From contig DATDXM010000042.1 of assembly GCA_035289325.1 (NCBI GenBank), positions 1-43,890 on the forward strand: 43,890 bases of DNA. Reading direction: 5' to 3'. The translations under genes and the position numbers were made by a program. Below are positions 3,068-36,319 of the stretch, one piece after another (the first letter of the stretch is position 1; each line of letters begins with the position of its first letter). The notes under the pieces are model-generated. The model was not told the DNA's origin. It saw only the letters and a program-made list of their open reading frames with translations, and searched no databases. The stretch comes from Candidatus Nanoarchaeia archaeon (GTDB lineage Archaea; Nanobdellota; Nanobdellia; Woesearchaeales; JAGLXL01).

Positions 3068-3298
3068 ATGATCGAAGAAAGCTCACGCCCATTGGATGCG
3101 CTGAACGAAGCGCGCAATCGAAGAGTCATCGTTGACTGCAAGAATGGAAAGCAGTATGTCGGCAAATTGAACGCATTTGACATTCACATTAACACAGTTT
3201 TACACGACGCAGAAGAGCGTGCTGACGGCGAGATGAAAAGGAAGTTAGGCAAAATTTTTATCCGCGGCGACACAATCATAACAATTTCTCCAGAATAG
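3068..3298 (+). CDS. Sm-like (LSm) archaeal protein
   Basis: [44 protein letters not shown] ... [11 protein letters not shown] match the Sm1/Sm2 motifs. I start at the ATG at 3068 (TATA-like GTATTATATACC at 3037-3048) rather than the track start at 2963. Confidence 0.8.
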
Positions 3299-3555: not shown

Positions 3556-3700
3556 CTGCGACAACAACAATGGCGGGTGACGGTCGCGCTTCGCACGCCC
3601 TATGTCGCAACAGATTTTACCGTTGTAGGGTAAAATCTGCTGCACTCCATCACCGCCAATGTTGCCGCACGAGAACTGCCCCAGCGCCACGGAGAACAGT
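3556..3700. repeat. GC-rich hairpin element E0 (member of the E/M family, see findings)
   Basis: GC-rich island between rpl37e and the stop of 3708..4373. It has an 11-bp hairpin CAGATTTTACC/GGTAAAATCTG (3611-3639). ATGGCGGGTGACGGTCGC resembles E1 5368-5386, and GCGCCACGGAGAACA resembles E3 35892-35906 and E1 5475-5489. Confidence 0.45.
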
Positions 3701-3707
3701 ACGAGAA

Positions 3708-4373
3708 TTACACTATCGTTTCGTTTGTTTTCTTTGCCCGCCGCTCGTCTGCTATCACTTTTGTTTTTTCAAAGCAGAGCTCTTTGACTGCACCAAGCAA
3801 GAGGAAATTGCATGTTGATGGGTCGCCTATCTCGTAAATAACCTTTAATCCACACCTGTCCTGTGCAAATGGCGGCGGCAGGTTACGGCAAATTGCAAGA
3901 TCTTTCTTTGCGACTGCAACTTTTGTGTAACAGCGCTCAGTCAATGGAATACTGTTCTGGACGCCTGCGCAGACAGTTTCGTCTTCTGTATCAAGAGAAA
4001 CATCAAGGTAACAGGTATTTTTAAGCTCTTCATTGGTAACTTGTGCGCAGAGTGAAGCATCGTTGATGTTCATGCCAACTGCTTTAAAGCATACATTGCG
4101 CCAATAAGAATCTTCTATGTCCGTGCAAATTGTTGAGCTGTTTGTTGTTTCGGCGATCCCTTCGTAACAATAATATTTGCTGCCTTCGTTTTCTGCACGG
4201 TCGCATAAGTTGATGTTCTGGCGAATGATGCCTATTTCAGCGTAACAAGTATCGCGCAAATTCTGCTGGCTAAGAGCATCACATTCTGCAACGACTGCAC
4301 CAGTAAATAGGTTGATTGCAGAGCAGGATGCAGTAATGATGAGCATGCTCAGCAGAATCACAATCAATCTCAT
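3708..4373 (-). CDS. secreted Cys-rich repeat protein
   Basis: N-terminal signal-like MRLIVILLSMLIITASCSA, followed by about 8 repeats of a C-x(n)-C unit (..RDTCYAEIG.., ..KNTCYLDVS.., ..ERCYTKVA..). Confidence 0.6.
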   Translation of the reverse strand: MRLIVILLSMLIITASCSAINLFTGAVVAECDALSQQNLRDTCYAEIGIIRQNINLCDRAENEGSKYYCYEGIAETTNSSTICTDIEDSYWRNVCFKAVGMNINDASLCAQVTNEELKNTCYLDVSLDTEDETVCAGVQNSIPLTERCYTKVAVAKKDLAICRNLPPPFAQDRCGLKVIYEIGDPSTCNFLLLGAVKELCFEKTKVIADERRAKKTNETIV

Positions 4374-4592: not shown

Positions 4593-5234
4593 ATGTTTAT
4601 TCCTAAAAAGTGGAAAATGATAACAAGAAAACACACCATATTAGAGCCGTTCGCTCAAGAAGCATGGAAAAAGCATACCTTCGGAGAGGTTAAAAAGTTA
4701 TCTCATAACAAGTCAGATAACTATGTCCATACCACTCTTAAGCGCTTTGTTGCGTCAGGTGTACTTCAAGAACAAAAAATAGGCAACATCATTGTATATT
4801 CTTTGACAAGAGAACTAATCTCACTAACAACTGTTGGCTTTGTCGCTGAGCACAGGGCAAACGCAGCTAAATATCTGCCTCATAGAAATATCCAAAAACT
4901 CATCAACAAAATTAAAACTGCTTTCTATATTTTTATTGTTACCGGCAGCTATGCTAAGATGAAGCAGAAAGAGACTTCTGATCTGGATATAGTTATCATT
5001 TGCGACAACAGGCAAGAGCCTAATGCTGTTCTTTCTCAGATAAAACTAGAAGCTGAGTTGATGATCCCAGAAGCTCATCCATATGTTTTCACTCAAGAGC
5101 AATTTTATCAGATGCTTACAGCTAAAGAAGAAAACTATGGGAAAGAATTCGCGCGGAATAACTTCATAATATCGGGGGGGGAGGCGTATTATTCAATTCT
5201 TATGGAGGCAATCGAACATGGATTCAACGGCTAA
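4593..5234 (+). CDS. nucleotidyltransferase (MNT-type antitoxin-like) with N-terminal wHTH
   Basis: IFIVTGSYAKMKQKETSDLDIVIICD matches the GS-x(n)-DxD polymerase-beta-type NTase motif. The architecture matches 8877..9410. TATA TTTATATAA lies at about 4569-4577. Confidence 0.7.
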   Translation: MFIPKKWKMITRKHTILEPFAQEAWKKHTFGEVKKLSHNKSDNYVHTTLKRFVASGVLQEQKIGNIIVYSLTRELISLTTVGFVAEHRANAAKYLPHRNIQKLINKIKTAFYIFIVTGSYAKMKQKETSDLDIVIICDNRQEPNAVLSQIKLEAELMIPEAHPYVFTQEQFYQMLTAKEENYGKEFARNNFIISGGEAYYSILMEAIEHGFNG

Positions 5235-5573: not shown

Positions 5574-5719
5574 GCGGGGATGCCGGAGCGGTCAAACGGG
5601 TCAGGCTTAGGTCAGCATGATGTGTGCTACTCATCGCGAGATGAGCTGGTTACCGGCGGTCGTGCTGATAGAAACCTGATGGCTTAGTGCCTTCGCAGGT
5701 TCGAATCCTGCTTCCCGCA
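5574..5719 (+). tRNA. tRNA-Leu(UAG) with 62-nt intron (5612..5673) at position 37/38
   Basis: Manual fold: acceptor GCGGGGA/TTCCCGC; anticodon stem TCAGG/CCTGA; loop CTTAGG|intron|A; long variable arm TGGCTTAGTGCCTTC; T arm GCAGG-TTCGAAT-CCTGC; discriminator A. The intron ends pair (TCAGCAtG/CGTGCTGA), consistent with a bulge-helix-bulge substrate. Confidence 0.85.
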
Positions 5720-8876: not shown

Positions 8877-9410
8877 ATGAGAGCTAAAAGTATCAAGCAG
8901 ACTATCAAAGAATACTTTTTTATTAATCCTACTGCTAAACTGCGAGTAAGAGAAATAGAAAGAACAGTTAAGCTTCCTCTCCCATCTGTCATAAGGTATT
9001 GCAGGGAACTTGAAAAAGAAAATATTTTAATGACAATTGTGGTAGGTAATGTTACTTTTTATACAGCAGATAGAGGCAGCAGGAAATTTATCTTAGAAAA
9101 GAAGCTTTACAATATAAAAGAAATATATGAATCAGGGCTTGTAGAGTATCTTCGGCAGGAATTAAGCAACCCCACAATAGTTCTCTTTGGCTCTTTTGCA
9201 AAAGGAGAAGACACGGAAGAAAGTGATGTTGATTTATATATAGAAACCCCTTCGAAGAAGAAAGTGGCGCTTGAAAGATTTGAAAAAGTGTTCCAAAGAA
9301 GTATACAGGCACTTCAACATAAGGACATATTTGTGATATCGAACTTACACTTAGCAAATAACATCATCAATGGGGTAATACTGAACGGTTATATCGAGGT
9401 TTTCAAGTGA
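8877..9410 (+). CDS. nucleotidyltransferase (MNT-type) with N-terminal wHTH
   Basis: IVLFGSFAKGEDTEESDVDLYIE is the NTase motif. It overlaps the downstream HEPN gene by 4 nt. Confidence 0.75.
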   Translation: MRAKSIKQTIKEYFFINPTAKLRVREIERTVKLPLPSVIRYCRELEKENILMTIVVGNVTFYTADRGSRKFILEKKLYNIKEIYESGLVEYLRQELSNPTIVLFGSFAKGEDTEESDVDLYIETPSKKKVALERFEKVFQRSIQALQHKDIFVISNLHLANNIINGVILNGYIEVFK

Positions 9411-9817
9411 AAGAAGCAAGCTGGGAAGATTGTTTGAGACATGAATCGACTAAAGCGGGCACACCAGACATAAAACGGGCGGAATCCTTAAAAGAGACTG
9501 CTCATGAAAGGATAAGCTTAATCAAAGAAGTAACTGAAGCAAACTGTAATTTTGTATTTGAAGATTACTATACATCATTGATTGAATTGTTGCAAGCTGT
9601 AGCTTTTAAACAAGGATATAACATTTTAAATCATATTTGTTTGGGCTATTATTTACGGGATGTGATGAAAAGAGAGGGGCTTTACATATTATTTGATGAT
9701 TTAAGATATAAAAGAAATTCTCTTACTTATTACGGAAACAGAATGGATTATGAAACAGCAAAGCAGGCAATAGAAAAATGTCAAAGAATAATAAAAGAGC
9801 TAGCTAACACATTATGA
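9407..9817 (+). CDS. HEPN-domain protein (partner of the 8877 NTase)
   Basis: 136-aa all-helical ORF translationally coupled to the NTase. It contains an LRYKRNSLTYYG region. The pairing is typical of MNT-HEPN modules. Confidence 0.65.
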   Translation: MKEASWEDCLRHESTKAGTPDIKRAESLKETAHERISLIKEVTEANCNFVFEDYYTSLIELLQAVAFKQGYNILNHICLGYYLRDVMKREGLYILFDDLRYKRNSLTYYGNRMDYETAKQAIEKCQRIIKELANTL

Positions 9818-11235
9818 AAAATATTGTCATTAAAGAACACTCCATCAAAGAGTTCTTACTTTTCGTGCTGCTCTTCTGCATACTACTCGCGCTGGGCATC
9901 TATTCACAATGGCCAACGACAATTACACCAGACGCTGCGATGCACGCGGAAATTGTTGAACTGATTCGAGCGCAGGGAGTTGTAACAACTTGGCAGCCCT
10001 ATGCTGTGAATCAATACACGTATCCGCCGCTGTTTCATTACATTGCGTTTTTATTGCCACTTGAGCCGATTGATGCTGTACGCGCACTGGGCCTTGTGCT
10101 GTGGCTGCTGCTGCCTGTTGCGATGTATCTGTTGCTGAGCACGTTTGACCGACGGGCTGCGGTGATTGGAGCGATCCTGATAGGGCTTGTGCCGTCATTT
10201 TCTAATGTATTTATCTACAGCGAATTTCCACAGTTGATGAGCATGGTGCTGCTCCTCTTGGAATGGTATTTTCTGCGCAAAGAGAAGCATGCGGCGGCGG
10301 CTGTGGCTGTGGGCGTTATTGGATTGACCCATGTATTCTTTGTGCTTGTTGCAGCTGCACTCTTTTTGGCTCATGTGTGGCTTGGTGGGAAAGTGAGAGC
10401 ATTGCGATATCTTGGGCTTTCGGCTGTTGTTATGATTCCATGGCTGTATGCATACGGACAAATTGTAATGAACGTGCTTGCTGGAACATGGGAAAATACG
10501 CGCTATAATTTGACGCAGCCTGTATTTGGATTTTGGAGCAGTAACGCACTCTATGACTGGTTTGTGAGTGCACATGGATTAACACTTGTGCTGATGGTCC
10601 TTGCCAGTTATGGCTTGCTTACTGTGAAAGATCGTGTGCTGCGCGGATTGTTTGTTGTGTGTGTTGTGCTGAGTGTATATCACATACCATTTACGCAATT
10701 GAAGATGTTCGATTTGCTTGCAGTGCCCGCGGTGATGCTTGCAGCAATCGGGTTGAGTGCAATTTCGCTAAAAAGTTTTTGGAAAAAATCAGTTGTTGTA
10801 ATTGTGGTCATTTTTATGCTTATGTTGCAGGTGAATCATTTTTGGGTTGCAAAAAACTGGTGGTTGAATCCAGAGATTGCGCCGACAGAGGAGTTTACGG
10901 ATGCTGCGCGGTGGCTGCGGAGTTATGACGATACATTTACTCGTGTGTTTTTTTATCAAGCGTCAGCATGGGGTGGGGTGTTATCGGGCAAATTGCCGTT
11001 AGATCCTGATATCACGCATTTAGAAGCTTTCTCGGATGATTATAAAGAACAGGTTGAAGGGCAGCGGAAGATAAAAGAGGCGCTGGTGGATGGTGAGGGG
11101 ATTGATGCTGATATTGTTGAACGATATGATATAAAGTATTTTGTGCTCCCTGTGGAGTTTGCTGGAGAATTGAAAAGTGATTTGCTCTATAGCAACGACG
11201 TGTGGGGGGTGTATAGAATTTATAAGAAAGAGTGA
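9814..11235 (+). CDS. polytopic membrane protein, GT-C-type glycosyltransferase-like (ArnT/PMT-like)
   Basis: 473 aa with more than 10 predicted TM helices, an acidic first loop (TPDAAMHAEIVE) and a soluble C-terminal domain. The family assignment is tentative. Confidence 0.45.
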   Translation: MKNIVIKEHSIKEFLLFVLLFCILLALGIYSQWPTTITPDAAMHAEIVELIRAQGVVTTWQPYAVNQYTYPPLFHYIAFLLPLEPIDAVRALGLVLWLLLPVAMYLLLSTFDRRAAVIGAILIGLVPSFSNVFIYSEFPQLMSMVLLLLEWYFLRKEKHAAAAVAVGVIGLTHVFFVLVAAALFLAHVWLGGKVRALRYLGLSAVVMIPWLYAYGQIVMNVLAGTWENTRYNLTQPVFGFWSSNALYDWFVSAHGLTLVLMVLASYGLLTVKDRVLRGLFVVCVVLSVYHIPFTQLKMFDLLAVPAVMLAAIGLSAISLKSFWKKSVVVIVVIFMLMLQVNHFWVAKNWWLNPEIAPTEEFTDAARWLRSYDDTFTRVFFYQASAWGGVLSGKLPLDPDITHLEAFSDDYKEQVEGQRKIKEALVDGEGIDADIVERYDIKYFVLPVEFAGELKSDLLYSNDVWGVYRIYKKE

Positions 11236-11248
11236 TATTCGTTCAGTC

Positions 11249-11787
11249 ATGACTGAGAAAATAGGTATTTCTGCTATTGATGTGAAGGTAATAGGGGAAG
11301 CTTATAGAGGTTTGCTCTCAATGTTTAGGTCTTATGAACACTTGTTGATTTTCTCGTTGAAGATGCTTTAGACAACCAAAATAAAAAGATTTCAACAACC
11401 TACTTATGGTTTTACAAACCGACAAATGATTTAGTTGGTTATGTGACTGTATTGGCTGATGCAATTAATCTGCAGGTAGAATTAAAAGAATATTTCCGCC
11501 AGACGGGGATTCTCTATAAGTCTTTACCTGCTATCAAGATTGGACGATTGTGTGTCGCTGACAATTATCTTAGAAAGGGAATAGGCACATTAATGATAGA
11601 ATTTGTGATGATTCTTGCTGAGAAAATAGGGAAAGATATTGGTTTGCGGTTTATTACAACAGATGCAAAGAGAAATATGGATTCAGGGAGAGATTCTCTT
11701 CATTTTTACAAAAAGTTTGGTTTTGAGGTTTTAAAGCAGAGAGACAAAGGAACGCTACCCATGTATAAGGACCTAATTAAGAAATGA
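11249..11787 (+). pseudogene. GNAT acetyltransferase (toxin-like) with apparent frameshift near 11335
   Basis: The C-terminal part (track ORF 11443..11787) has the GNAT motif-A-like RLCVADNYLRKGIGTLMIEF. The same frame stays open upstream to 11338 (TLVDFLVEDALDNQNKKISTTYLWFYKPTNDLVGYV) without a start. The ATG at 11249 is in another frame (MTEKIGISAIDVKVIGEAYRGLLSMFRSYEH). Confidence 0.5.
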
Positions 11788-11937
11788 TTCGAAGTGTTTT
11801 CTATTCTTATTAATATCAGCGTAGAGCAGTCTGTCTATTGCAGATAGTGGAGATGCCTCTCTTTTAAGCATTTTCTGAACAAAAAGTTCTGCTTCTTCTC
11901 CACGCAATGTTGGGGTTGCTCTGATTGGTTTTGCCAT
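11773..11937 (-). CDS. 54-aa protein, convergent with and overlapping the GNAT 3' end
   Basis: Manual translation gives MAKPIRATPTLRGEEAELFVQKMLKREASPLSAIDRLLYADINKNRKHFESFLN. A TATA (TTTTATATATTTA on the minus strand) lies about 30 nt upstream. Confidence 0.45.
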   Translation of the reverse strand: MAKPIRATPTLRGEEAELFVQKMLKREASPLSAIDRLLYADINKNRKHFESFLN

Positions 11938-11984
11938 TGTAAGCTTAATCTGACCCTAAATATATAAAACTTTGGTCAGGGGAA

Positions 11985-12062
11985 CGGAGCTGCTCTATAG
12001 CAATGGTGTGTGGGGGGGGTATGGTTAAACAATCTTCCCAAAGAACAGATTATATTTGCTGA
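11985..12062. repeat. relict copy of the junction between the 3' ends of 9814..11235 and 12996..14207
   Basis: 11985-12027 (..ELLYSNGVWGGYG*) resembles 11177-11220 (..DLLYSNDVWGVYR..). On the minus strand, 12024-12062 (LSKYNLFFGKIV*) resembles 12996-13034 (RSKHNVFFGKIV*). Confidence 0.6.
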
Positions 12063-12282
12063 GTCAGTTCAATTCCAATGGGCAGTGTTATTTTTATATC
12101 CTCAAGCTTACGTGTTCGTGCCTTGAACCCCATAATAGCAAAGCCTTTGACTTCCCCTGTTCGTCTGTCCGTTCAAAAACACCTTGACCAAGATTTTTAA
12201 ACGAACCTTCGGTGAATTTACCTATATGAAACTCTAAAAAATCTCCCTCTTCATCATAGTATACAGTCAGATTTCCTTTCAT
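12050..12282 (-). pseudogene. DUF2283-family protein with frameshift at a G-run (about 12146)
   Basis: The N-terminus MKGNLTVYYDEEGDFLEFHIG is the DUF2283 signature. After ..ERTDEQG the shifted frame reads EVKGFAIMGFKARTRKLEDIKITLPIGIELTQQI*, the expected family C-terminus. The in-frame tail (track ORF end 12094) does not fit the family. Confidence 0.6.
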
Positions 12283-12354
12283 TGTATTTTATCTGTATAG
12301 AAGCTTGTAATTATAAATCCATTGTCATCGTAGTCAGCGAAAATAAGAGAAAAC

Positions 12355-12362
12355 TATTTATA
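12355..12362 (+). promoter_or_regulatory. TATA box for 12385..12519
   Basis: TATTTATA lies 22 nt upstream of the ATG. Confidence 0.45.
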
Positions 12363-12384
12363 CATATTCAGCACAGATAGATTC

Positions 12385-12519
12385 ATGGAAACAATTACTA
12401 TTTCAAAAGAAGAATATGTTCATCTGAAGCGGATGGAATCTATAGTACAGGATGAATTGCTCGTGAGCGTTAAGCGAGGGCTAGAAGACGCAGCTCAAGG
12501 GCGGTTACGAGAGCGTTAA
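12385..12519 (+). CDS. 44-aa antitoxin-like protein, paralog of 331..471
   Basis: Manual translation gives METITISKEEYVHLKRMESIVQDELLVSVKRGLEDAAQGRLRER. It is convergent with the RelE-like ORF and overlaps it by 15 nt. Confidence 0.5.
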   Translation: METITISKEEYVHLKRMESIVQDELLVSVKRGLEDAAQGRLRER

Positions 12520-12780
12520 CTTTTTTCTGATGAGGTCGTTGTAATAATCTAATTCTCGTTTGATTTTTTTGATAGTGTCCTGCTGTGTTTTCTTGTCACT
12601 GATAGTTATGAGCAGGATTGCGTCGAGGTCTTCATACACTAAAAAGTAAATACGATAGAGGTCGATTTTCTTCTCTCTGAAAAACGGATAGCCTAAAGGT
12701 TTACCAGCATTTATGTTATGCTTTAATTGCTCAATAATTTTTGTAATTCGATTTTGATATGTCAGAATACCACCAGTATT
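12505..12780 (-). pseudogene. RelE/ParE-like gene lacking its 5' end (abuts element E2)
   Basis: Manual translation gives ..YQNRITKIIEQLKHNINAGKPLGYPFFREKKIDLYRIYFLVYEDLDAILLITISDKKTQQDTIKKIKRELDYYNDLIRKKLTLS*. It aligns with 74..334. There is no start codon, and the frame runs into E2. Confidence 0.5.
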
Positions 12781-12955
12781 TTACTGGTGATATCGGGTGG
12801 TATTCTGAGCATGCTCAAGAACCATCGGCGTCCATGCCATCGGTGTATAGCGACCGAAGGGAGCGGTCACCGATGGTTCTTGACAATCTTTAGGGAGAAG
12901 CTGCATGCGTCAAATTCTTGCGTTGATAGAACGCGAACCATATTGTGGTGGAGAG
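12759..12955. repeat. GC-rich hairpin element E2
   Basis: It opens with ATGTCAGAATACCACC..GGTGGTATTCTGAGCA, the same layout as the M1/M2 opening ATGTCAGAAAC..GTTTCTGAGCA. It also has an 11-bp stem AGAACCATCGG/CCGATGGTTCT and further hairpins. The right boundary is uncertain. Confidence 0.45.
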
Positions 12956-12995
12956 AATAGTAATTTATAATTTGATTGTTACAATCAATGCGTAA

Positions 12996-14207
12996 CTACA
13001 CAATCTTCCCAAAAAACACATTATGCTTGCTTCTTAGTATCTTGACTTTTATTTCGTCGCCGACTTGCGCATCTGAATTGAACACGGTAATTGATCGATC
13101 TTTTGCAACTGCCAGCCGTGTTTTGGGATATCTGCCTGCTGCAACAACCTTTGCGTAGACACTCTGACCTTTCTTGAATGGTTTGGGTAATTGTTTTGTT
13201 TGCTCAACATGGAAATCTTTTTTGAAATCGAGGATGAGGCGCATGCCGGTCTTTTTTTCCAAATCACGCAACTTTGACATAAACGGTTCCCAGGGCATCA
13301 TCTTTGTAGGATTTCTGCCTGTCGTATAATTAAGAAAATTTTGGATGCCGACCATCGGGTAATCCTTTTGTGGCAATGTTTTAGCAAACTCTACGACTTT
13401 GAGCAGCTCGTCATCGTTATAACCGGGAACGAAGAGAGGGGCGATTAGAATGTCCATCTTGTCAGCGGCGTACCGTGCCATTTCCATCACATGACTCGTA
13501 TTGTATATTGCACCTGCCATCTTTGAAGCGATTTCTTTGTCAACTGCGTTGAGCGAGATGTTCAGGCGAAGCTTTGGTATCTTCGACAGCTTGTCAATCA
13601 ACGGCTTGTTGAGCAATGTGCCGTTTGTGTCTGTGGTGATGCGATAGACATACGGAAGCGTGGAAAGTTCCTGCGCAAGCTCTGCAAATTCTGCATAGAC
13701 CAAAGGCTCGCCCTGCACGCCGATGTGCGCTTCGACGGGAATATTAACGAATGCTGCGACGCGCTTGAATTCTTCAATAAGGTAATCACGCTCGACGAGG
13801 TAGTCGGTTTGGTTTGAGGAGAGGCCTTCGTTCACAGAACAATAGACGCAATCAAGGTTGCATGATGTCTGCGGCTTGATCTCGATAATTGATGTGCCGC
13901 GATGGATGATGCCAAACGAGAGGTTGCCTATGAGGGGTATGCCACTGTTCTTGTGGACATAGACTGCTGGATTGTGGGTGACGATTGTCTTTAATTGCGG
14001 AAGCTTTTGTGTTAGGAGATTAAGAAATTTTTGTTCTGCACGCTGATGCGAGCAGTCAAATGTCAGTGCGTTGCGCTCGACTATACATGGTGCAATCGAT
14101 TCCAACTCTGCTTTCTGAATATGCGTGTAAAAACGCTTTGATAGGTTAACTCGTACCGTATCCTCTTCTTCCCAGAAGTCAAGCATCTGGTAGGTGAGCG
14201 TGGACAT
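12996..14207 (-). CDS. radical SAM protein
   Basis: CNLDCVYCSV is the CxxxCxxC cluster motif. There is a 403-aa TIM-barrel-like core plus a C-terminal small beta domain. Confidence 0.8.
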   Translation of the reverse strand: MSTLTYQMLDFWEEEDTVRVNLSKRFYTHIQKAELESIAPCIVERNALTFDCSHQRAEQKFLNLLTQKLPQLKTIVTHNPAVYVHKNSGIPLIGNLSFGIIHRGTSIIEIKPQTSCNLDCVYCSVNEGLSSNQTDYLVERDYLIEEFKRVAAFVNIPVEAHIGVQGEPLVYAEFAELAQELSTLPYVYRITTDTNGTLLNKPLIDKLSKIPKLRLNISLNAVDKEIASKMAGAIYNTSHVMEMARYAADKMDILIAPLFVPGYNDDELLKVVEFAKTLPQKDYPMVGIQNFLNYTTGRNPTKMMPWEPFMSKLRDLEKKTGMRLILDFKKDFHVEQTKQLPKPFKKGQSVYAKVVAAGRYPKTRLAVAKDRSITVFNSDAQVGDEIKVKILRSKHNVFFGKIV

Positions 14208-14295
14208 GAGCTCTTTTTAGGCGGGAGGGTATATAAATCTGATTGGTTCGGGCCTCTTCGAAACATTTTTATATTATACTTAGTATAACAGAATT

Positions 14296-14529
14296 ATGGT
14301 CGAATGTGAAGTTGTTGCACGGAAATGGGGGCATTCTTTAGGCGTTGAACTACCGAAAAATGTTGTTGAGGAAGAAGGAATCAAAGAGAATGAGAAAATA
14401 AGAATTTCTATTAAAAGAGAAGATGATGCTGAAGATAGGACTGCGCGAAAATTGTTTGGAATGGTTAAGTTTAAAAAACCTACGCAACAATGGAAAGATG
14501 AAATAAGAAAAGAACTATACAATGATTGA
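14296..14529 (+). CDS. vapB: AbrB/SpoVT-fold antitoxin (VapB-like)
   Basis: RKWGHSLGVELPKNVVEEEGIKENEKIRISIK is a swapped-hairpin AbrB/MazE-type motif. It overlaps the PIN gene by 8 nt. Confidence 0.7.
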   Translation: MVECEVVARKWGHSLGVELPKNVVEEEGIKENEKIRISIKREDDAEDRTARKLFGMVKFKKPTQQWKDEIRKELYND

Positions 14530-14893
14530 TGAGACTTATTTCTTTGACAGTTATGCGATTGCTGAGGTTCTTAAGCAAAATGAAAGCTATAAAGTATACA
14601 GCACATGCATGATTTTTGTCACCAAACTTAATCTATTTGAGACTGCCTATGGGTTGCATAAAGAAGGTCGGGCTCAGGATGTTGAACAATTTTTGAATGA
14701 AGCATCAAAATTTGTTACCGATTTCAATTCAGATATCATCCAAAAAGCTGCTGAATTTAGGTTTATTCATAAAAAACAAAATCTCTCCATGACCGACTGC
14801 ATCGGCTATTGTCTTGCGCTGAAGTTGGGTATTAAGTTTCTCACCGGTGATAAAGAGTTCGAGCACCTGCCAAACGTGGAATTTGTGAAGTAA
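14522..14893 (+). CDS. vapC: PIN-domain toxin (VapC-like)
   Basis: Acidic residues sit in PIN positions (YFFDSYAI.., ..MTDCIGY.., ..LTGDKEF). Length is 123 aa. Confidence 0.7.
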   Translation: MIDETYFFDSYAIAEVLKQNESYKVYSTCMIFVTKLNLFETAYGLHKEGRAQDVEQFLNEASKFVTDFNSDIIQKAAEFRFIHKKQNLSMTDCIGYCLALKLGIKFLTGDKEFEHLPNVEFVK

Positions 14894-14960
14894 CACTAAA
14901 TGGGATTATTATCTACCACACAGTGATTAATATAATAAGATTTATATAGCCGCCGCTTAC

Positions 14961-16340
14961 GTGGCTTGCATGGTGGATGGTCATTTTATCGGTTTAGTTC
15001 GCGATGAATTTGGACGAGTACAGAAAGTACTGTCAGATTCTGTTTATTACAGAAGCGAGCGAGGCGGGAATTATGGAGGACGCGTACGAAATCCCGGTCA
15101 ATGGTGGAGGTCAGAGAGAGTTGCACGAGTTGCTCCATTATCTGTTTCTTTGGAACAGGTTATTGATCAAAAAGTTACAGATGATTATAGGCGATTGCCT
15201 GATCACCTTAGAGAGACATTGCAGCAAGGGCTTTTGCGAACATCTGTAGAAAGAAGCACTGATTATGCTGTACTAATGAGTGTTGTTTGTGCTGATGGAA
15301 AAGTGGATGGGGGACGAACCGGCGCACTGCTCTACAGAGGAGAGCCCGTTATCGTTAACATTGATGGAAAGGAATTTGTTGTTGAAATAAAAGGGGTTGG
15401 AAGTGCTGATGGTAATAATACGCGAACTGAACCAATAGTGAGGCGCGGCTATTTTGGTATATTCAAGGAGAAATTTGGAAGCCTTGACAAAGAAGAAGGT
15501 ATGAGAGAATTAGAATGCCTTGAAGTGCAGCGAGGCTCATCTTCATTTGCTCGTGGTGATACAGTGCGTGCTGTCAGTTTGCACATATATGATAATATAG
15601 GTGATAATTATAAGCAGGCGTATCACTTGAGGCTTGCGCCAAGCACTGTTCGTGTGTCGTTCACTGGCAACCCTGCATTTCCTGAGCATGATGCACAATG
15701 TTTAGCTGAGGACATTGGACAGCAGTACGCGGAACTTGCACAGTTGGGATTTCTTCATGGTTCATTGCATGCGGAGAATGTGCTTTTTACAGGCACGCGT
15801 TATGTGATGACAGATTTTGGTGATTGCAGCAGATTAGAAGAACTCCCTGACCTGTATGATTTTTTAAGTAATACATTGAGCAGAGATAGATTCAGAGAAA
15901 TGCCTGGATTCACAAATAGACATATTGATATATTGTATGCAACGATTGCGCGGGGTTTAGGAATCTCTTATGCTTCTGAGAGAGATCTTTGGTTTATTGA
16001 TGATATCTGGTCAGGATTTTTTGCGTCGAAAGTATATGAGCTGAGAAAAGGAACGCATGTACAGGAGCATGTTGACGAAAAGAAAGCAAGTGTTCTTGAT
16101 GAGATCGAGCATGGAGACCGTGCGTGGATCGATAATAAATTACGAGTATATCCTCTTGCTTTTTTATCAAGAGAAATTCGTGTGCTCGAGCATGTTGATG
16201 CGCCAGAAGCCATTGAAAGCCTACGAATTGCACGCGAAAGGGCAGCATATCTCATGAATGCTGATGTTATAAAAGAGTTCAAAGATAATCTCGGTGCGTG
16301 GGAACAGTTGTTTTTTCTCCCGTATATGCGTTCGCGATAG
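14961..16340 (+). CDS. SelO/YdiU-like pseudokinase-fold protein (putative nucleotidyltransferase)
   Basis: FVVEIKGVGSADGNNT resembles SelO ..LKGaG.TP. LRLAPSTVRVSF resembles SelO RvAPSfiRfGsF. GFLHGSLHAENVLFTGTRYVMTDFGD resembles SelO GFvHGVmNTDNm....tIDYG. The start is GTG per the track. Assignment is from memory of SelO motifs. Confidence 0.45.
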   Translation: MACMVDGHFIGLVRDEFGRVQKVLSDSVYYRSERGGNYGGRVRNPGQWWRSERVARVAPLSVSLEQVIDQKVTDDYRRLPDHLRETLQQGLLRTSVERSTDYAVLMSVVCADGKVDGGRTGALLYRGEPVIVNIDGKEFVVEIKGVGSADGNNTRTEPIVRRGYFGIFKEKFGSLDKEEGMRELECLEVQRGSSSFARGDTVRAVSLHIYDNIGDNYKQAYHLRLAPSTVRVSFTGNPAFPEHDAQCLAEDIGQQYAELAQLGFLHGSLHAENVLFTGTRYVMTDFGDCSRLEELPDLYDFLSNTLSRDRFREMPGFTNRHIDILYATIARGLGISYASERDLWFIDDIWSGFFASKVYELRKGTHVQEHVDEKKASVLDEIEHGDRAWIDNKLRVYPLAFLSREIRVLEHVDAPEAIESLRIARERAAYLMNADVIKEFKDNLGAWEQLFFLPYMRSR

Positions 16341-16349
16341 CACACCCAC

Positions 16350-16738
16350 GCGATATTGAAAATGTCAGAAACAAGGTTTCTGAGCACGATCAGAAATCTG
16401 TGGATTTCTGACGGTTCTCGCTTAGTAATAAGCTAGTCAGCATTGCTATGCTTGACACGTACCTCGGTGCTGTCGTTCGCTCGGTCAATTTTTTTATGTG
16501 CTTTATTCACAAACACCATCAGATTAAGCTGAAGAAAATCGATTCCAACGTGCTCAGAAACTTCGTTTCTGGCACCTCGCTCACTTTGTTCGGAGGAGTC
16601 AGAACATTACCAACGCTTCGCTCAGTAAAAAGCTAGTCAGCACTGTGGTGCTCGACACGTACCTTGACAGCACACGCAAAGTTACCTTTGCTAGTCGCGT
16701 TCGGCAACTGCCTCGCGACCAACACTTTTCAATATCGC
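16350..16738. mobile_element. MITE-like element M1 (389 bp)
   Basis: The TIR is GCGATATTGAAAA(T)GT ... AC(A)CTTTTCAATATCGC. The first 125 nt differ from M2 at 3 positions, and the last 68 nt are identical to M2. The segment 16429-16483 is duplicated internally at about 16618-16672. No flanking duplication was seen. Confidence 0.6.
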
Positions 16739-16928
16739 CTCGAGGTTAGAGAATTTTTATCCAGATTCAGGGATAACGAGGGGATAAGCAATGACGAGCT
16801 TCAGGAATCTTACGAAATTAATAAGAAAGACTGTGGACTGGTGCGAGCTATTGCCCGTAGCATTATCAACCGTAATGCTCGTTCAGTTCGATAGGTTTGT
16901 CAAGAACGAGTATTACATCAGTCATAAG

Positions 16929-23105: not shown

Positions 23106-23527
23106 AAATGAGTAAGATAACGCAAAATGAAAAATATTATTTTTTCCTAAATCCCTATATTGATAGCTCTTTCACACGATGCCCGAAGTGTGACAACAAG
23201 ACTAAAGTAAAAAAATTACCTCTTGCCATACTGCTGGAAAAAAAGAAAATAATATTTATGCTGAACAAAACCTGTAAATTCTGCCCCTACTGCGAGCTGA
23301 TCATAGCAAAAAAACGTGAATTAGAATTAATCATCCTGCAATTTTTAGGCGTAGAGCATATAACTGAAAAAGACTTCACGGTTATGGGGACACAAGACAA
23401 AGCAGTTTACCGTGAGGGTGTTGGTAAGGGGCTGATTAAAAAGAATCCATTAGAAGGCGTTTCCATATTTAAGAATGTGTGGCATTTTGAGGTTCAGCAT
23501 GCTTACTGGGGCGTTGATAAAAAATGA
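23102..23527 (+). CDS. hypothetical zinc-ribbon protein
   Basis: 141 aa with CPKCDNKT ... CKFCPYCE (two CxxC pairs). Confidence 0.45.
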   Translation: MKMSKITQNEKYYFFLNPYIDSSFTRCPKCDNKTKVKKLPLAILLEKKKIIFMLNKTCKFCPYCELIIAKKRELELIILQFLGVEHITEKDFTVMGTQDKAVYREGVGKGLIKKNPLEGVSIFKNVWHFEVQHAYWGVDKK

Positions 23528-34925: not shown

Positions 34926-35297
34926 TTAGTTCTTCAGATTCAATTCAACAAATTCCAAAAAAGAATGAAGCGCAATGAGCGGCTTGCTTGAGATGTTGCT
35001 CTCTTTGACATTGCTCTCTGAACCATCATGAAAGTGCTTTGGAAAAGTCATTATGTGCCTGTGCTTCTTATGAGGCGCATTATCGTGCCTATAGATACTA
35101 CCATCCAGCCGTTGCCAATGATACGAATATTTTTCGCCGCTTAACCAAATTTCAAGAAACGAGCCATCGCTCATAAACAAACGCAAGCTTTTTGCTGTGT
35201 TTAGGGGACCATGAGTTATAATGCCCGATAGAATAATGTCTGGAAAATCGAGAAGTGCTGCCCGCTTCAGCTCATCATAGGTATTTTCTGCATCCAC
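34926..35297 (-). CDS. TumE/DUF6516-like toxin-family protein
   Basis: YSYHWQRLDGSIYRHDNAPHKKHRHIMTFPKHFHDGSE matches the RyDNAPHH..tfPhHkH signature as I recall it. Confidence 0.5.
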   Translation of the reverse strand: MDAENTYDELKRAALLDFPDIILSGIITHGPLNTAKSLRLFMSDGSFLEIWLSGEKYSYHWQRLDGSIYRHDNAPHKKHRHIMTFPKHFHDGSESNVKESNISSKPLIALHSFLEFVELNLKN

Positions 35298-35560
35298 TCG
35301 CTCACCGCTTTTACTTTTTTACTCAAATTTTCCCAGTAAATAAGCTGTTCCCATGCGGGGTGCTCTTCAACTCGGCCTGATTCAATCTTCTGCTTCAGCT
35401 CATTCGGTGTTTCTACATCGAACTCATGTTTCAGCTTTGTAATTTCAACAGAAGCATTGCGCAACTCTCTTTCCAGAAATGCAGGGATACTTTCATCTAA
35501 TATTTTGACTTCTGAAAGTTCTAAATCCTTTGACAGCTGGGTCAGCATAGACTTTTTCAT
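35267..35560 (-). CDS. hypothetical helical protein, upstream partner of the TumE-like gene
   Basis: 97 aa, overlapping the downstream gene by 31 nt. A TATA (TTTTTATAGATATATT on the minus strand) lies upstream. Confidence 0.4.
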   Translation of the reverse strand: MKKSMLTQLSKDLELSEVKILDESIPAFLERELRNASVEITKLKHEFDVETPNELKQKIESGRVEEHPAWEQLIYWENLSKKVKAVSEWMQKIPMMS

Positions 35561-35954: not shown

Positions 35955-36304
35955 GCGATATTGAAAATGTCAGAAACAAGGTTTCTGAGCACGATCAGAA
36001 ATCTGTGGATTTCTGACGGTTCTCGCTTAGTAAGAAGCTAGTCAGCATTGCTATGCTCGACACGTACCTCGGTGGTGTCAACTCGCTCGGCAAAAATCGG
36101 GATGTCAGATTAACACATTTTATGCTTTCATCCTCTTATTGATTTTTGTTCCACGAAAAAGATGCAGAGCAATAGGAAAGTAGCTACTCGTACTTCGTAC
36201 CGAGACATCGGCGCCTCGCTCGTAAATCAAAGACACCACACGCAAAGTTACCTTTGCTAGTCGCGTTCGGCAACTGCCTCGCGACCAACACTTTTCAATA
36301 TCGC
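35955..36304. mobile_element. MITE-like element M2 (350 bp) with flanking 9-10 bp direct duplication
   Basis: It has the same termini as M1. (C)ATATAAGCG occurs at 35945-35954 and again at 36305-36314, immediately outside the inverted repeats. Confidence 0.65.
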
Positions 36305-36319
36305 CATATAAGCGACATG

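Follow-up and report, generated by a model that had tools for sequence, protein, structure and literature searches.

A relict convergent gene junction between two toxin-antitoxin-like cassettes in a Woesearchaeales archaeon, and its empty allele

We analysed a 43,890-nt contig of a Candidatus Nanoarchaeia archaeon of the order Woesearchaeales (DATDXM010000042.1 in assembly GCA_035289325.1; the whole contig is called the window). In it the convergent 3' ends of a membrane-protein gene, here gene A, and a radical-SAM (rSAM) gene are held apart by two small cassettes of toxin-antitoxin (TA) type, with a diverged copy of the gene junction lying between the cassettes. This 1.78-kb segment, the islet, is an insertion relative to an uninterrupted junction of the same population, and cassette DNA now encodes the final codons and the stop of gene A as well as the stop of the rSAM gene. 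As to its origin, we give an even chance to two insertions that would have occurred through short gene-end homology, the islet now being gained or lost as one unit.

The junction in its occupied and empty states

The argument rests on the following features (A and B are the outer copies of the two gene ends, A' and B' the inner ones; other contigs and loci carry L numbers).

9814-11235, plus strand: gene A, an open reading frame (ORF) for a 473-aa polytopic membrane protein, GT-C-like at best
11183-11214, plus strand: A, outer copy forming the functional 3' end of gene A, with no difference from the empty-site allele as far as 11216
11215-11986: cassette 1, with a TATA-like sequence, a GNAT pseudogene and a convergent 54-aa gene with its promoter region
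11987-12060: relict junction, by alignment a gap-free 74-nt copy of the empty gene A/rSAM junction
11987-12027, plus strand: A', ending in ..ELLYSNGVWGGYG and a stop
12024-12060, minus strand: B', ending in LSKYNLFFGKIV and a stop
12061-12995: cassette 2, with a DUF2283-like gene, a 44-aa gene and a RelE/ParE-like toxin gene in two pieces
12996-14207, minus strand: rSAM gene, 403 aa (Pfam PF04055, E 1e-23)
12997-13031, minus strand: B, outer and functional copy of the rSAM 3' end, differing from the empty allele at 12999 and 13014

An exact-protein look-up of the rSAM gene returned five contigs, of which two (L001, L002) were occupied like the window and three (L003, L004 and L005, from three samples) were empty. 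The initial annotation had proposed a comparison with relatives for an uninterrupted junction, and these three contigs provided it: their rSAM gene, 100% identical in protein, directly abuts gene A in the sequence ..GATTTGCTCTATAGCAACGACGTGTGGGGGGTGTATAG TTAA ACAATCTTCCCAAAGAACACATTATGCTTGCT.., which around the shared stops reads ..GTGTATAG TTAA ACAATCTTCCCAAAGAACAC... Gene A ends there in VYS and the rSAM protein in KIV, and both stop codons share the TTAA. On the rSAM side the empty and occupied alleles were aligned over 8260 nt without a gap and with three mismatches, two of which (12999 and 13014) fall in the last 19 nt by the insert. The first base of the rSAM stop, 12996, also differs by direct reading, and the outer rSAM end thus shows three changes in 19 nt against one, a population single-nucleotide polymorphism (SNP), in the other 8.2 kb. 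On the gene-A side the differences were concentrated at 11135-11174. The GC content of 11236-12995 is about 35%, compared with 45-50% in the host genes.

The initial annotation had reported that the 3' end of gene A recurs near 11985-12027, that of the rSAM gene near 12024-12062, and that the two stops of the middle copy overlap at TTAA. All of this was borne out, including the translations it quoted. In a repeat search over 9000-15500, later extended to the whole window, the two highest-ranking direct repeats of 9000-15500 were the gene-A end (11183-11214 and 11991-12022, 32 nt, 88%) and the rSAM end (12026-12060 and 12997-13031, 35 nt, 86%). Both ranked fifth and sixth in the window, behind copies of a miniature inverted-repeat transposable element (MITE) and one three-copy family at 65-74% identity, and behind nothing else. 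When each gene end was aligned locally against the islet interior (11260-12970), both reached a score of 20, whereas the maximum after shuffling was 14 (n = 1000); the Gumbel p value was about 6e-7 for either repeat, and both alignments landed on the coordinates first reported. The inner copies lie 3 nt apart in their native convergent order, with the stop codons overlapping in TTAA at 12024-12027. Compared with the empty site, the central 24 nt of the relict (12024-12047, TTAAACAATCTTCCCAAAGAACA) are identical, and all ten mismatches sit in the arms, seven on one side (columns 3, 4, 18, 20, 21, 32 and 37) and three on the other (columns 62, 68 and 69). We estimate the chance of all ten avoiding the relict centre at about 0.03.

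The SNPs are divided among the copies in an orderly manner. At the gene-A border, which reads ..TGTATAG / AATTTAT, the outer copy equals the empty allele to the last shared base. The outer rSAM copy has CTAC and A where the empty allele has TTAA and G, and at these sites the relict sides with the empty allele; where the relict departs from the empty allele, the outer rSAM copy matches the empty allele. The empty site therefore equals the left part of A, the core of the relict and the right part of B, a partition that two reciprocal joins within short homologies, by integration or by excision, would produce. For both cassettes the SNP partition agrees with a precise empty site composed of left-flank and right-flank halves; at B, with six informative sites and a single switch, it carries little information. 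As candidate shared cores, a 16-nt identical run (GTGTGGGGGGTGTATA) can be named for cassette 1, present only with the A' variant of L007 and L016, and just AACA between the switching SNPs for cassette 2.

The 3' ends of both host genes were changed by the insertion. In the empty allele gene A ends in ..VWGVYS, compared with ..VYRIYKKE in the occupied allele, where the last six codons and the stop (11215-11235, RIYKKE) are cassette DNA. The added codons overlie what looks like the promoter of the GNAT gene. The rSAM gene ends in GTT TAA in the empty allele and in GTG TAG in the occupied one, beside the promoter and palindrome of the RelE-like gene. Gene-A orthologues in L113-L115 end in ..WGVY plus one residue, L019 being the exception. 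The initial annotation had explained the layout by cassettes that integrated into gene ends while supplying replacement ends. The empty allele, the collinear relict, the cassette-supplied 3' ends and a RelE-rSAM joint shared with a second species agree with it. However, the outer gene-A copy equals the empty allele and the relict arms have diverged, so the middle copy is not simply a displaced host end, and no recombinase, attC site, terminal inverted repeats (TIRs) with target-site duplications (TSDs) or secure circle was found.

Gene A has no Pfam match and a weak NCBIfam match to glycopolymer formation (E 0.0014), and a homologue search with its C-terminus returned nothing. The relatives of the rSAM protein are found in metagenome-assembled genomes (MAGs) of Woesearchaeota and Nanoarchaeota. 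The archaeal nature of the window shows in its intron-containing tRNA gene and in the genes for Nop10, eIF2-alpha and GINS on contigs matching it. These contigs come from groundwater metagenomes; the record names ANAN16 and C687J we take to denote Rifle aquifer samples.

The two cassettes and their variation in the population

The genes and signals within the cassettes are listed below; the TATA-like sequences are our own readings.

11217-11224: TATA-like TTTATAAG, 26 nt upstream of the GNAT ATG
11250-11787: GNAT pseudogene, with a frameshift near 11340 in every contig
11773-11937, minus strand: 54-aa gene, convergent with GNAT and overlapping it by 15 nt at the 3' end
About 11958-11972: TATA-like promoter region of the 54-aa gene
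12094-12282, minus strand: DUF2283-like gene, probably frameshifted (Pfam E 7e-4, below the curated cut-off)
12385-12519, plus strand: 44-aa gene, intact
12505-12760 and 12887-12941, minus strand: RelE/ParE-like toxin gene, matching NCBIfam TIGR02683 after reconstruction, below the curated cut-off
12761-12886: MITE-like, hairpin-rich insertion of 126 nt (TGTCAGAA...TTCTTGACA) splitting the RelE-like gene, absent from the L113 orthologue
12966-12973: TATA-like box upstream of the RelE-like gene
12972-12988: palindrome TTGATTGTTACAATCAA, upstream of the RelE-like gene

The two cassettes stand as the initial annotation had described them, except that its GNAT gene is a frameshifted pseudogene and its DUF2283 gene is probably frameshifted too. 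The RelE-like gene is present, not simply truncated but split by the 126-nt MITE-like element, which is probably what had been listed as 'E2'. The GNAT domain was recognised by Pfam at E 7e-9 to 1e-8, and full-length homologues of 181-183 aa, 75-82% identical, are common in Woesearchaeota. The reconstructed RelE/ParE-like protein matched TIGR02683 at E 5e-5, with 23.6 bits against a cut-off of 62.9. Neither the 54-aa nor the 44-aa partner had a family match in profile searches of the Pfam/NCBIfam type. With GNAT frameshifted and RelE split, both toxins are, as judged from their reading frames, inactivated, while the small partner genes are intact.

The partner genes are convergent with the toxin genes and not co-directional. 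In both cassettes the toxin-like gene and the small ORF overlap by 15 nt at their 3' ends (11773-11787 and 12505-12519), and the convergent GNAT/54-aa arrangement is kept in five other Woesearchaeota loci (L105, L107-L110). A convergent overlap of this kind is not the usual layout of type II TA pairs and is a hint of antisense control. In these five loci the GNAT/54-aa module lies in unrelated contexts, and the DNA homology is confined to 11329-11937.

The element inside the RelE-like gene ends in TIR-like sequences, folds as DNA at a predicted -34.4 kcal/mol (z = -7.4), and has CAGAAAT..ATTTCTG hairpin modules in common with a MITE of the window at 35955-36305. A longer version of it, with about 110 nt more and two extra hairpin blocks, is held by L102 (653-836) and L103 (637-820), two short contigs from samples which also contain the empty allele and in which cassette 2 has different right flanks. 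This form is either another genomic copy or, more probably, the product of an assembly graph that tangled at MITE copies.

All eight contigs spanning the relict carry both cassettes, and no allele with a single cassette was obtained through exact-protein look-ups of the rSAM, 54-aa, 62-aa and 44-aa genes. Cassette 2 has no SNP among the contigs covering it. Cassette 1 varies solely in a patch of about 100 nt in the GNAT pseudogene (11477-11580) with 16 SNPs, the rest of the islet being invariant; the window alone differs at nine of these sites, and at the remaining seven L017 has the bases of the other contigs. Such a patch resembles a gene-conversion tract whose donor was a paralogue or a different strain.

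The islet, itself invariant, is found in at least three host haplotypes, whose private SNPs run up to its borders. L013 represents a left haplotype, with AATGGT and TATAA in the functional end of gene A, further changes at 11162, 11166 and 11174, and SNPs reaching 11216. L010 represents a right haplotype, with changes at 13014, 13035, 13041 and 13062. That host SNPs reach the islet borders in different backgrounds is more easily explained if the joins were made at fixed positions than if homologous crossovers made them. Strains otherwise at least 99% identical vary strongly in the final 50-70 nt of both host genes (seven SNPs in 55 nt in L013, window-equivalent 11151-11216, and four in 50 nt in L010, 13014-13062), and position 11166 shows three alleles. 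This hypervariability suggests that the gene ends at the junction were replaced repeatedly.

A circle or tandem array of cassette 1 should show the junction ..GGGGAACGGAGCTGCTCTATAGCAATGGTGTGTGGGGGGKGTATRR/AATTTATAAGAAAGAGTGA, and a circle of cassette 2 the junction ..TCAATGCGTAACTACACAATCTTCCCAAAAAACA/GATTATATTTGCTGAGTCAGTTC; ..GGKGTATGGTTAAACAATCTTCCCAAAGAACACATTATGCTTGCT would be expected in an allele with cassette 1 only and ..GGTGTATAGTTAAACAATCTTCCCAAAGAACAGATTATATTTGCTGAG in one with cassette 2 only (a slash marks a joint). L007 runs from the A' flank straight into the beginning of cassette 1, the arrangement of a circle or tandem array. As an attP circle junction this contig is ambiguous, because its right-hand sequence is found also where gene A functionally ends in L013. 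A DNA scan of metagenome contigs for all attachment-site (att) forms of cassette 2 (ACAATCTTCCCAAARAACASATTAT) gave no match, which does not imply absence: an exact-pattern scan missed a sequence present in the JGI contigs L002 and L003, although a protein-based scan of that collection gave other contigs of those samples. Scans of viral contigs with the GNAT protein and both att cores were negative or gave chance matches of 19-22 nt. The islet today behaves as a single presence/absence unit with dead toxins. No sign was seen that the cassettes are mobile at present or independently of each other: they were never seen singly, have almost no SNPs and carry dead toxins.

The junction in sister species and look-alike relicts

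Gene A lies beside the rSAM gene only in close relatives, and what separates the two genes varies among them:

L019, rSAM 68% identical to that of the window: a PemK/MazF-like pair between gene A and rSAM, with no repeats
L113 and L114, rSAM 79% identical: 514 nt with the 44-aa gene and the RelE-like gene without the MITE, and with no relict, no DUF2283 and no cassette 1
L115, rSAM 79% identical: 145 non-coding nt

In L113 and L114 the reading frame of the RelE-like gene appears shifted near its 5' end, and the joint to rSAM in this second species, ..AATGCGTAA/CTA, is the same as in the window. Between the window and L113, the RelE core is better conserved than the host genes in nucleotide identity (80-87% vs 68-72%), in third codon positions (63%, n = 148, vs 44-49%) and in protein identity (87-93% vs 61-79%). 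This suggests that the RelE core was transferred later to that same place; the difference could in part reflect AT bias and functional constraint, and is not decisive. The spacer of L115 (4561-4705) starts with ATTGATTGTA, a 10-mer common to the palindrome upstream of RelE in cassette 2; this 10-mer could be the trace of a lost cassette, but it is statistically weak. As read from these contigs, the gene A/rSAM junction is a genus-wide TA hot spot.

Similar relicts were looked for in 649 kb of Woesearchaeota loci, where the terminal 45 nt of each of 1467 ORFs were compared with the 4 kb downstream at a threshold of at least 24 matches in 28. This strict screen gave three hits (the window, L108 and L110), compared with none in the reversed control. 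L108 was rejected as a relict, being a whole-gene paralogue pair. In L110 the last 52 nt of a 79-aa gene, stop included, recur 594 nt downstream at 87% (3557-3608 and 4151-4202), with 34 of the last 35 bases matching. Between the gene and this copy stands a one-gene insert that has a TATA-like box of its own, and a convergent SET-domain gene has its stop 10 nt from the copy. About 800 nt further on, the contig carries a GNAT/54-aa cassette. A relaxed screen was unspecific, hits being just as numerous in bacterial controls as in Woesearchaeota, and therefore only the strict screen and curated cases were used.

Two further cases were curated from the relaxed screen. In L069 (1313-1387 and 2501-2756), from a Woesearchaeota-like MAG, a Fic/DOC gene stands between a Bud32-like kinase gene and a relict. 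A 75-nt, 89% repeat of the kinase gene end abuts the stop of a convergent gene. The relict includes, in addition, 150 nt that match the upstream gene at 76%, and a deletion of about 660 nt separates the two pieces. L033 has a 106-nt direct repeat at 72% (3177-3282 and 3728-3833), one copy of which lies over the 3' end of a SAM-methyltransferase gene and the other beyond an inserted 135-aa gene. Across the cases, the relicts measure 35, 37, 52, 75 and 106 nt.

Origin of the islet and its place among known systems

Under the reading of two insertions, cassette 1 would have entered through about 35-40 nt of homology to the gene-A end and cassette 2 by way of about 35 nt shared with the rSAM end. 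Both would be reciprocal joins within the short homology, of the attB x attP type, each leaving one copy on the gene and another where the cassette ends on its far side. These two distal copies would then flank the untouched 24-nt core of the old junction and make up the relict together with it. Because insertion into the TTAA destroys a stop codon, only cassettes bringing a replacement end would survive. A recombinase acting in trans or the host recombination machinery are the candidate enzymes, and recombination in the flanking genes may now gain or remove the islet as a unit. The collinear relict with its untouched core, the hybrid SNPs, the host SNPs reaching the borders and the cassette-supplied ends, among them the RelE-rSAM joint shared with a second species, all support this reading, to which we give even odds and which we rank first. 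The other cassettes at the junction in sister species, the similar architecture of L110 and the low GC of the islet also speak for it.

Several observations weigh against it. Neither cassette encodes a recombinase, as the initial annotation had already stated, and a scan of the cassette ORFs and of 40 ORFs of the window revealed no integrase or recombinase domain. Single-stranded DNA of 11170-11260, of 12950-13040 and of either strand of 11938-12066 folded like shuffled sequence, with z between -1.0 and +0.6 and thus no attC-like fold, and the repeat search of 9000-15500 gave neither inverted repeats pairing the cassette ends nor a TSD. Accordingly, an integron reading was rejected for want of an attC fold and, within the window, of IntI and attI, and so was a transposon or MITE reading of the two cassettes, which lack TIRs and TSDs. 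Gene-end repeats were not found around the GNAT cassettes of the five other genomes. L113 has the RelE core yet no relict. Alleles with only cassette 1 or only cassette 2 number none among the eight contigs described above. The relict-type AATGGT in the functional gene-A end of L013 is not predicted by a single reciprocal event, and the L007 joint, which consists of the A' flank, a shared stretch of 27-32 nt and an attL of the L013 type, is possibly an assembly chimera. Of the three hybrid SNPs at B, two depend on the context of the stop codon (TTAA vs CTA), and the third (13014) is polymorphic, with G in the occupied allele L010. The L069 relict, as an internally deleted copy of a much larger segment, is better explained by duplication and erosion than by a short att arm.

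Less probable than two insertions, but to be taken seriously, is that a segment of a diverged relative, cassette and gene ends included, was imported and later eroded to the 74-nt stub. Its route could have been homologous on one side with an illegitimate join on the other (homology-facilitated illegitimate recombination), or a single crossover of the Campbell type in long gene homology, with deletions trimming the redundant copy afterwards, and it would need no dedicated recombinase or att site. Such an import could account for repeats that seem to have been born diverged, at 86-89%, though the islet is polymorphic among strains 99.9% identical. The AATGGT of A' (..SNGVWG..) is the state in the functional gene of L013 and of the sister species, and is thus a real allele and not random decay. 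The two diverged pieces of L069 with their deletion of about 660 nt, the varying relict lengths, the movement of the islet always as one unit and the SNP density climbing toward it on both sides would also be expected. However, host-type SNPs reach the islet border, which would require crossovers within 0-20 nt of heterology each time, and the relict matches the local empty site at every one of its central 24 nt, with arms that are about 17% diverged. Furthermore, a Campbell crossover predicts a resident-type relict identical to the empty allele, which was not seen.

It is unlikely that the repeats are exact target duplications of about 35 nt made in situ long ago, whose inner copies have since decayed, the empty allele then being either an old balanced haplotype or the product of two repeat-mediated deletions. 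The empty site is formally derivable from the occupied one by recombination of A with A' and of B' with B, both toxins are eroded, and the RelE core with its joint to rSAM is shared with a species whose rSAM is only 79% identical, all of which speaks for it. But the relict divergence of about 12% is 10-100 times that of the empty and occupied flanks (0.04-1.5%), the mismatches are unevenly spread along the relict, and the three A' changes coincide with a functional allele. The accumulation of changes at the outer rSAM end, three in 19 nt against one in the other 8.2 kb, also argues against it, and, with third codon positions of the host genes 44-49% identical, a relict dating back to the species split would be expected to approach saturation, but it is 86% identical. 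A local tandem duplication unrelated to the cassettes, which the initial annotation had named as what would overturn its proposal, chance similarity and an assembly artefact have nothing in their favour beyond the presence of repeats, and we regard them as refuted. Tandem duplication would give the order A, B', A', B, whereas A, A'B', B was observed, and the empty allele reveals a clean insertion of foreign, low-GC DNA; chance is contradicted by the p value of each repeat, and an artefact by the structure being present in at least eight independently assembled contigs from several samples.

Beyond this locus, we consider tentatively, and rather doubt, that DPANN archaea may possess a class of recombinase-less TA mini-cassettes of 0.6-1 kb with their own promoters, moved in trans by a recombinase. 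It is similarly speculative that they would integrate site-specifically into the last 35-75 nt of host genes, preferably at compact convergent junctions, and that their att site would be a cassette-borne, imperfect mimic of the gene end.

Other features of the window are worth recording. The hairpin-rich MITE at 35955-36305 (about 351 nt) has GGCGATATTGAAAA.. and ..TTTTCAATATCGCC as TIRs, and ATATAAGC as its 8-nt target duplication; another copy, in rearranged form, is found at about 16348-16739, downstream of a 459-aa gene, with segments 98-99% identical. The tRNA gene at 5574-5719 has an intron of about 75 nt (Rfam tRNA, 42 bits) and was not reported by ARAGORN. Other small cassettes of TA or defence type flank core genes, all of low GC: an MNT gene with a HEPN-like partner at 8877-9817, a second MNT gene at 4593-5234, AbrB/MazE and PIN genes at 14296-14893 (the PIN pair occurs in every allele seen), and a TumE gene at 34926-35297 with an upstream ORF (the pair spans 34926-35560). 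A repeat of the window at 9793-9825 and 23106-23138 was rejected, being not significant and lying beside unrelated proteins.

By analogy, the closest kinds of system appear to be integrative elements targeting the 3' ends of tRNA or protein genes, their integrase-less derivatives and recombination-driven hot spots. The first of these, tyrosine-recombinase elements such as the archaeal SSV, pNOB8 and pTN3 types, resemble the islet in target-derived direct repeats, an element-supplied gene end, a precise empty site and SNPs that make attB/attP hybrids. However, the islet has no integrase, whole or split, its units measure only 0.8-1.0 kb, its repeats are 86-88% identical and do not clearly share an identical core, its two different targets lie back to back at one convergent junction, and its one candidate circle junction is ambiguous. 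Cis-mobilisable elements (CIMEs) of streptococcal integrative and conjugative elements, and integrase-less satellite or decayed elements in tRNA-linked islands such as the Prochlorococcus tycheposons, likewise consist of att-bounded cargo only, depend on a recombinase encoded elsewhere and by accretion leave internal att relicts. In contrast to them, no cognate autonomous element or integrase was found for the islet, and its relict consists of half-sites of two genes and not of one att.

Integrons have been reported in Archaea, and their cassettes are also small units of one or two genes without their own recombinase and with TA cargo, a likeness that is a functional analogy only. The islet differs by having no attC hairpin (z about 0), no IntI or attI in the window, and apparent promoters of its own; cassette 1 does not begin with TTRRRY, though its right border reads G/TTAAAC. 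Small TA-rich chromosomal spots without recombinases, where genes are turned over by homologous recombination in the flanks, have been described, and the 2026 Photorhabdus study terms the integration of TA cassettes into such spots 'unclear' (PMC13617665). There as here, the same pair of core genes brackets different TA cassettes, units are gained and lost, and no recombinase lies in the spot. However, the spot of the islet has an intergenic region of zero length with overlapping stops, and it keeps a trace of entry, the relict. Unusual in our case are a convergent junction of zero length at which two different gene-end targets adjoin, very small TA cassettes with apparent promoters of their own, imperfect repeats, a DPANN host, and a series, in population and genus, running from empty site through RelE core only to double cassette.

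The locus combines occupied and empty alleles of one population with a scar that records both entry points, and it offers replaced gene ends, different cassettes in sister species and at least two look-alikes in Woesearchaeota (L110 and L069). It shows that an ultra-compact genome with overlapping stops is still able to accept foreign genes. If a recombinase acting in trans is responsible, this would be a new mobility system in DPANN archaea; otherwise, the islet is a clean case of DNA acquired through short homology or an illegitimate join and eroded afterwards. The mini-cassette class, if it exists, would be an archaeal functional counterpart of integron cassettes or CIMEs, and would explain how TA genes colonise gene-dense, integrase-free spots.

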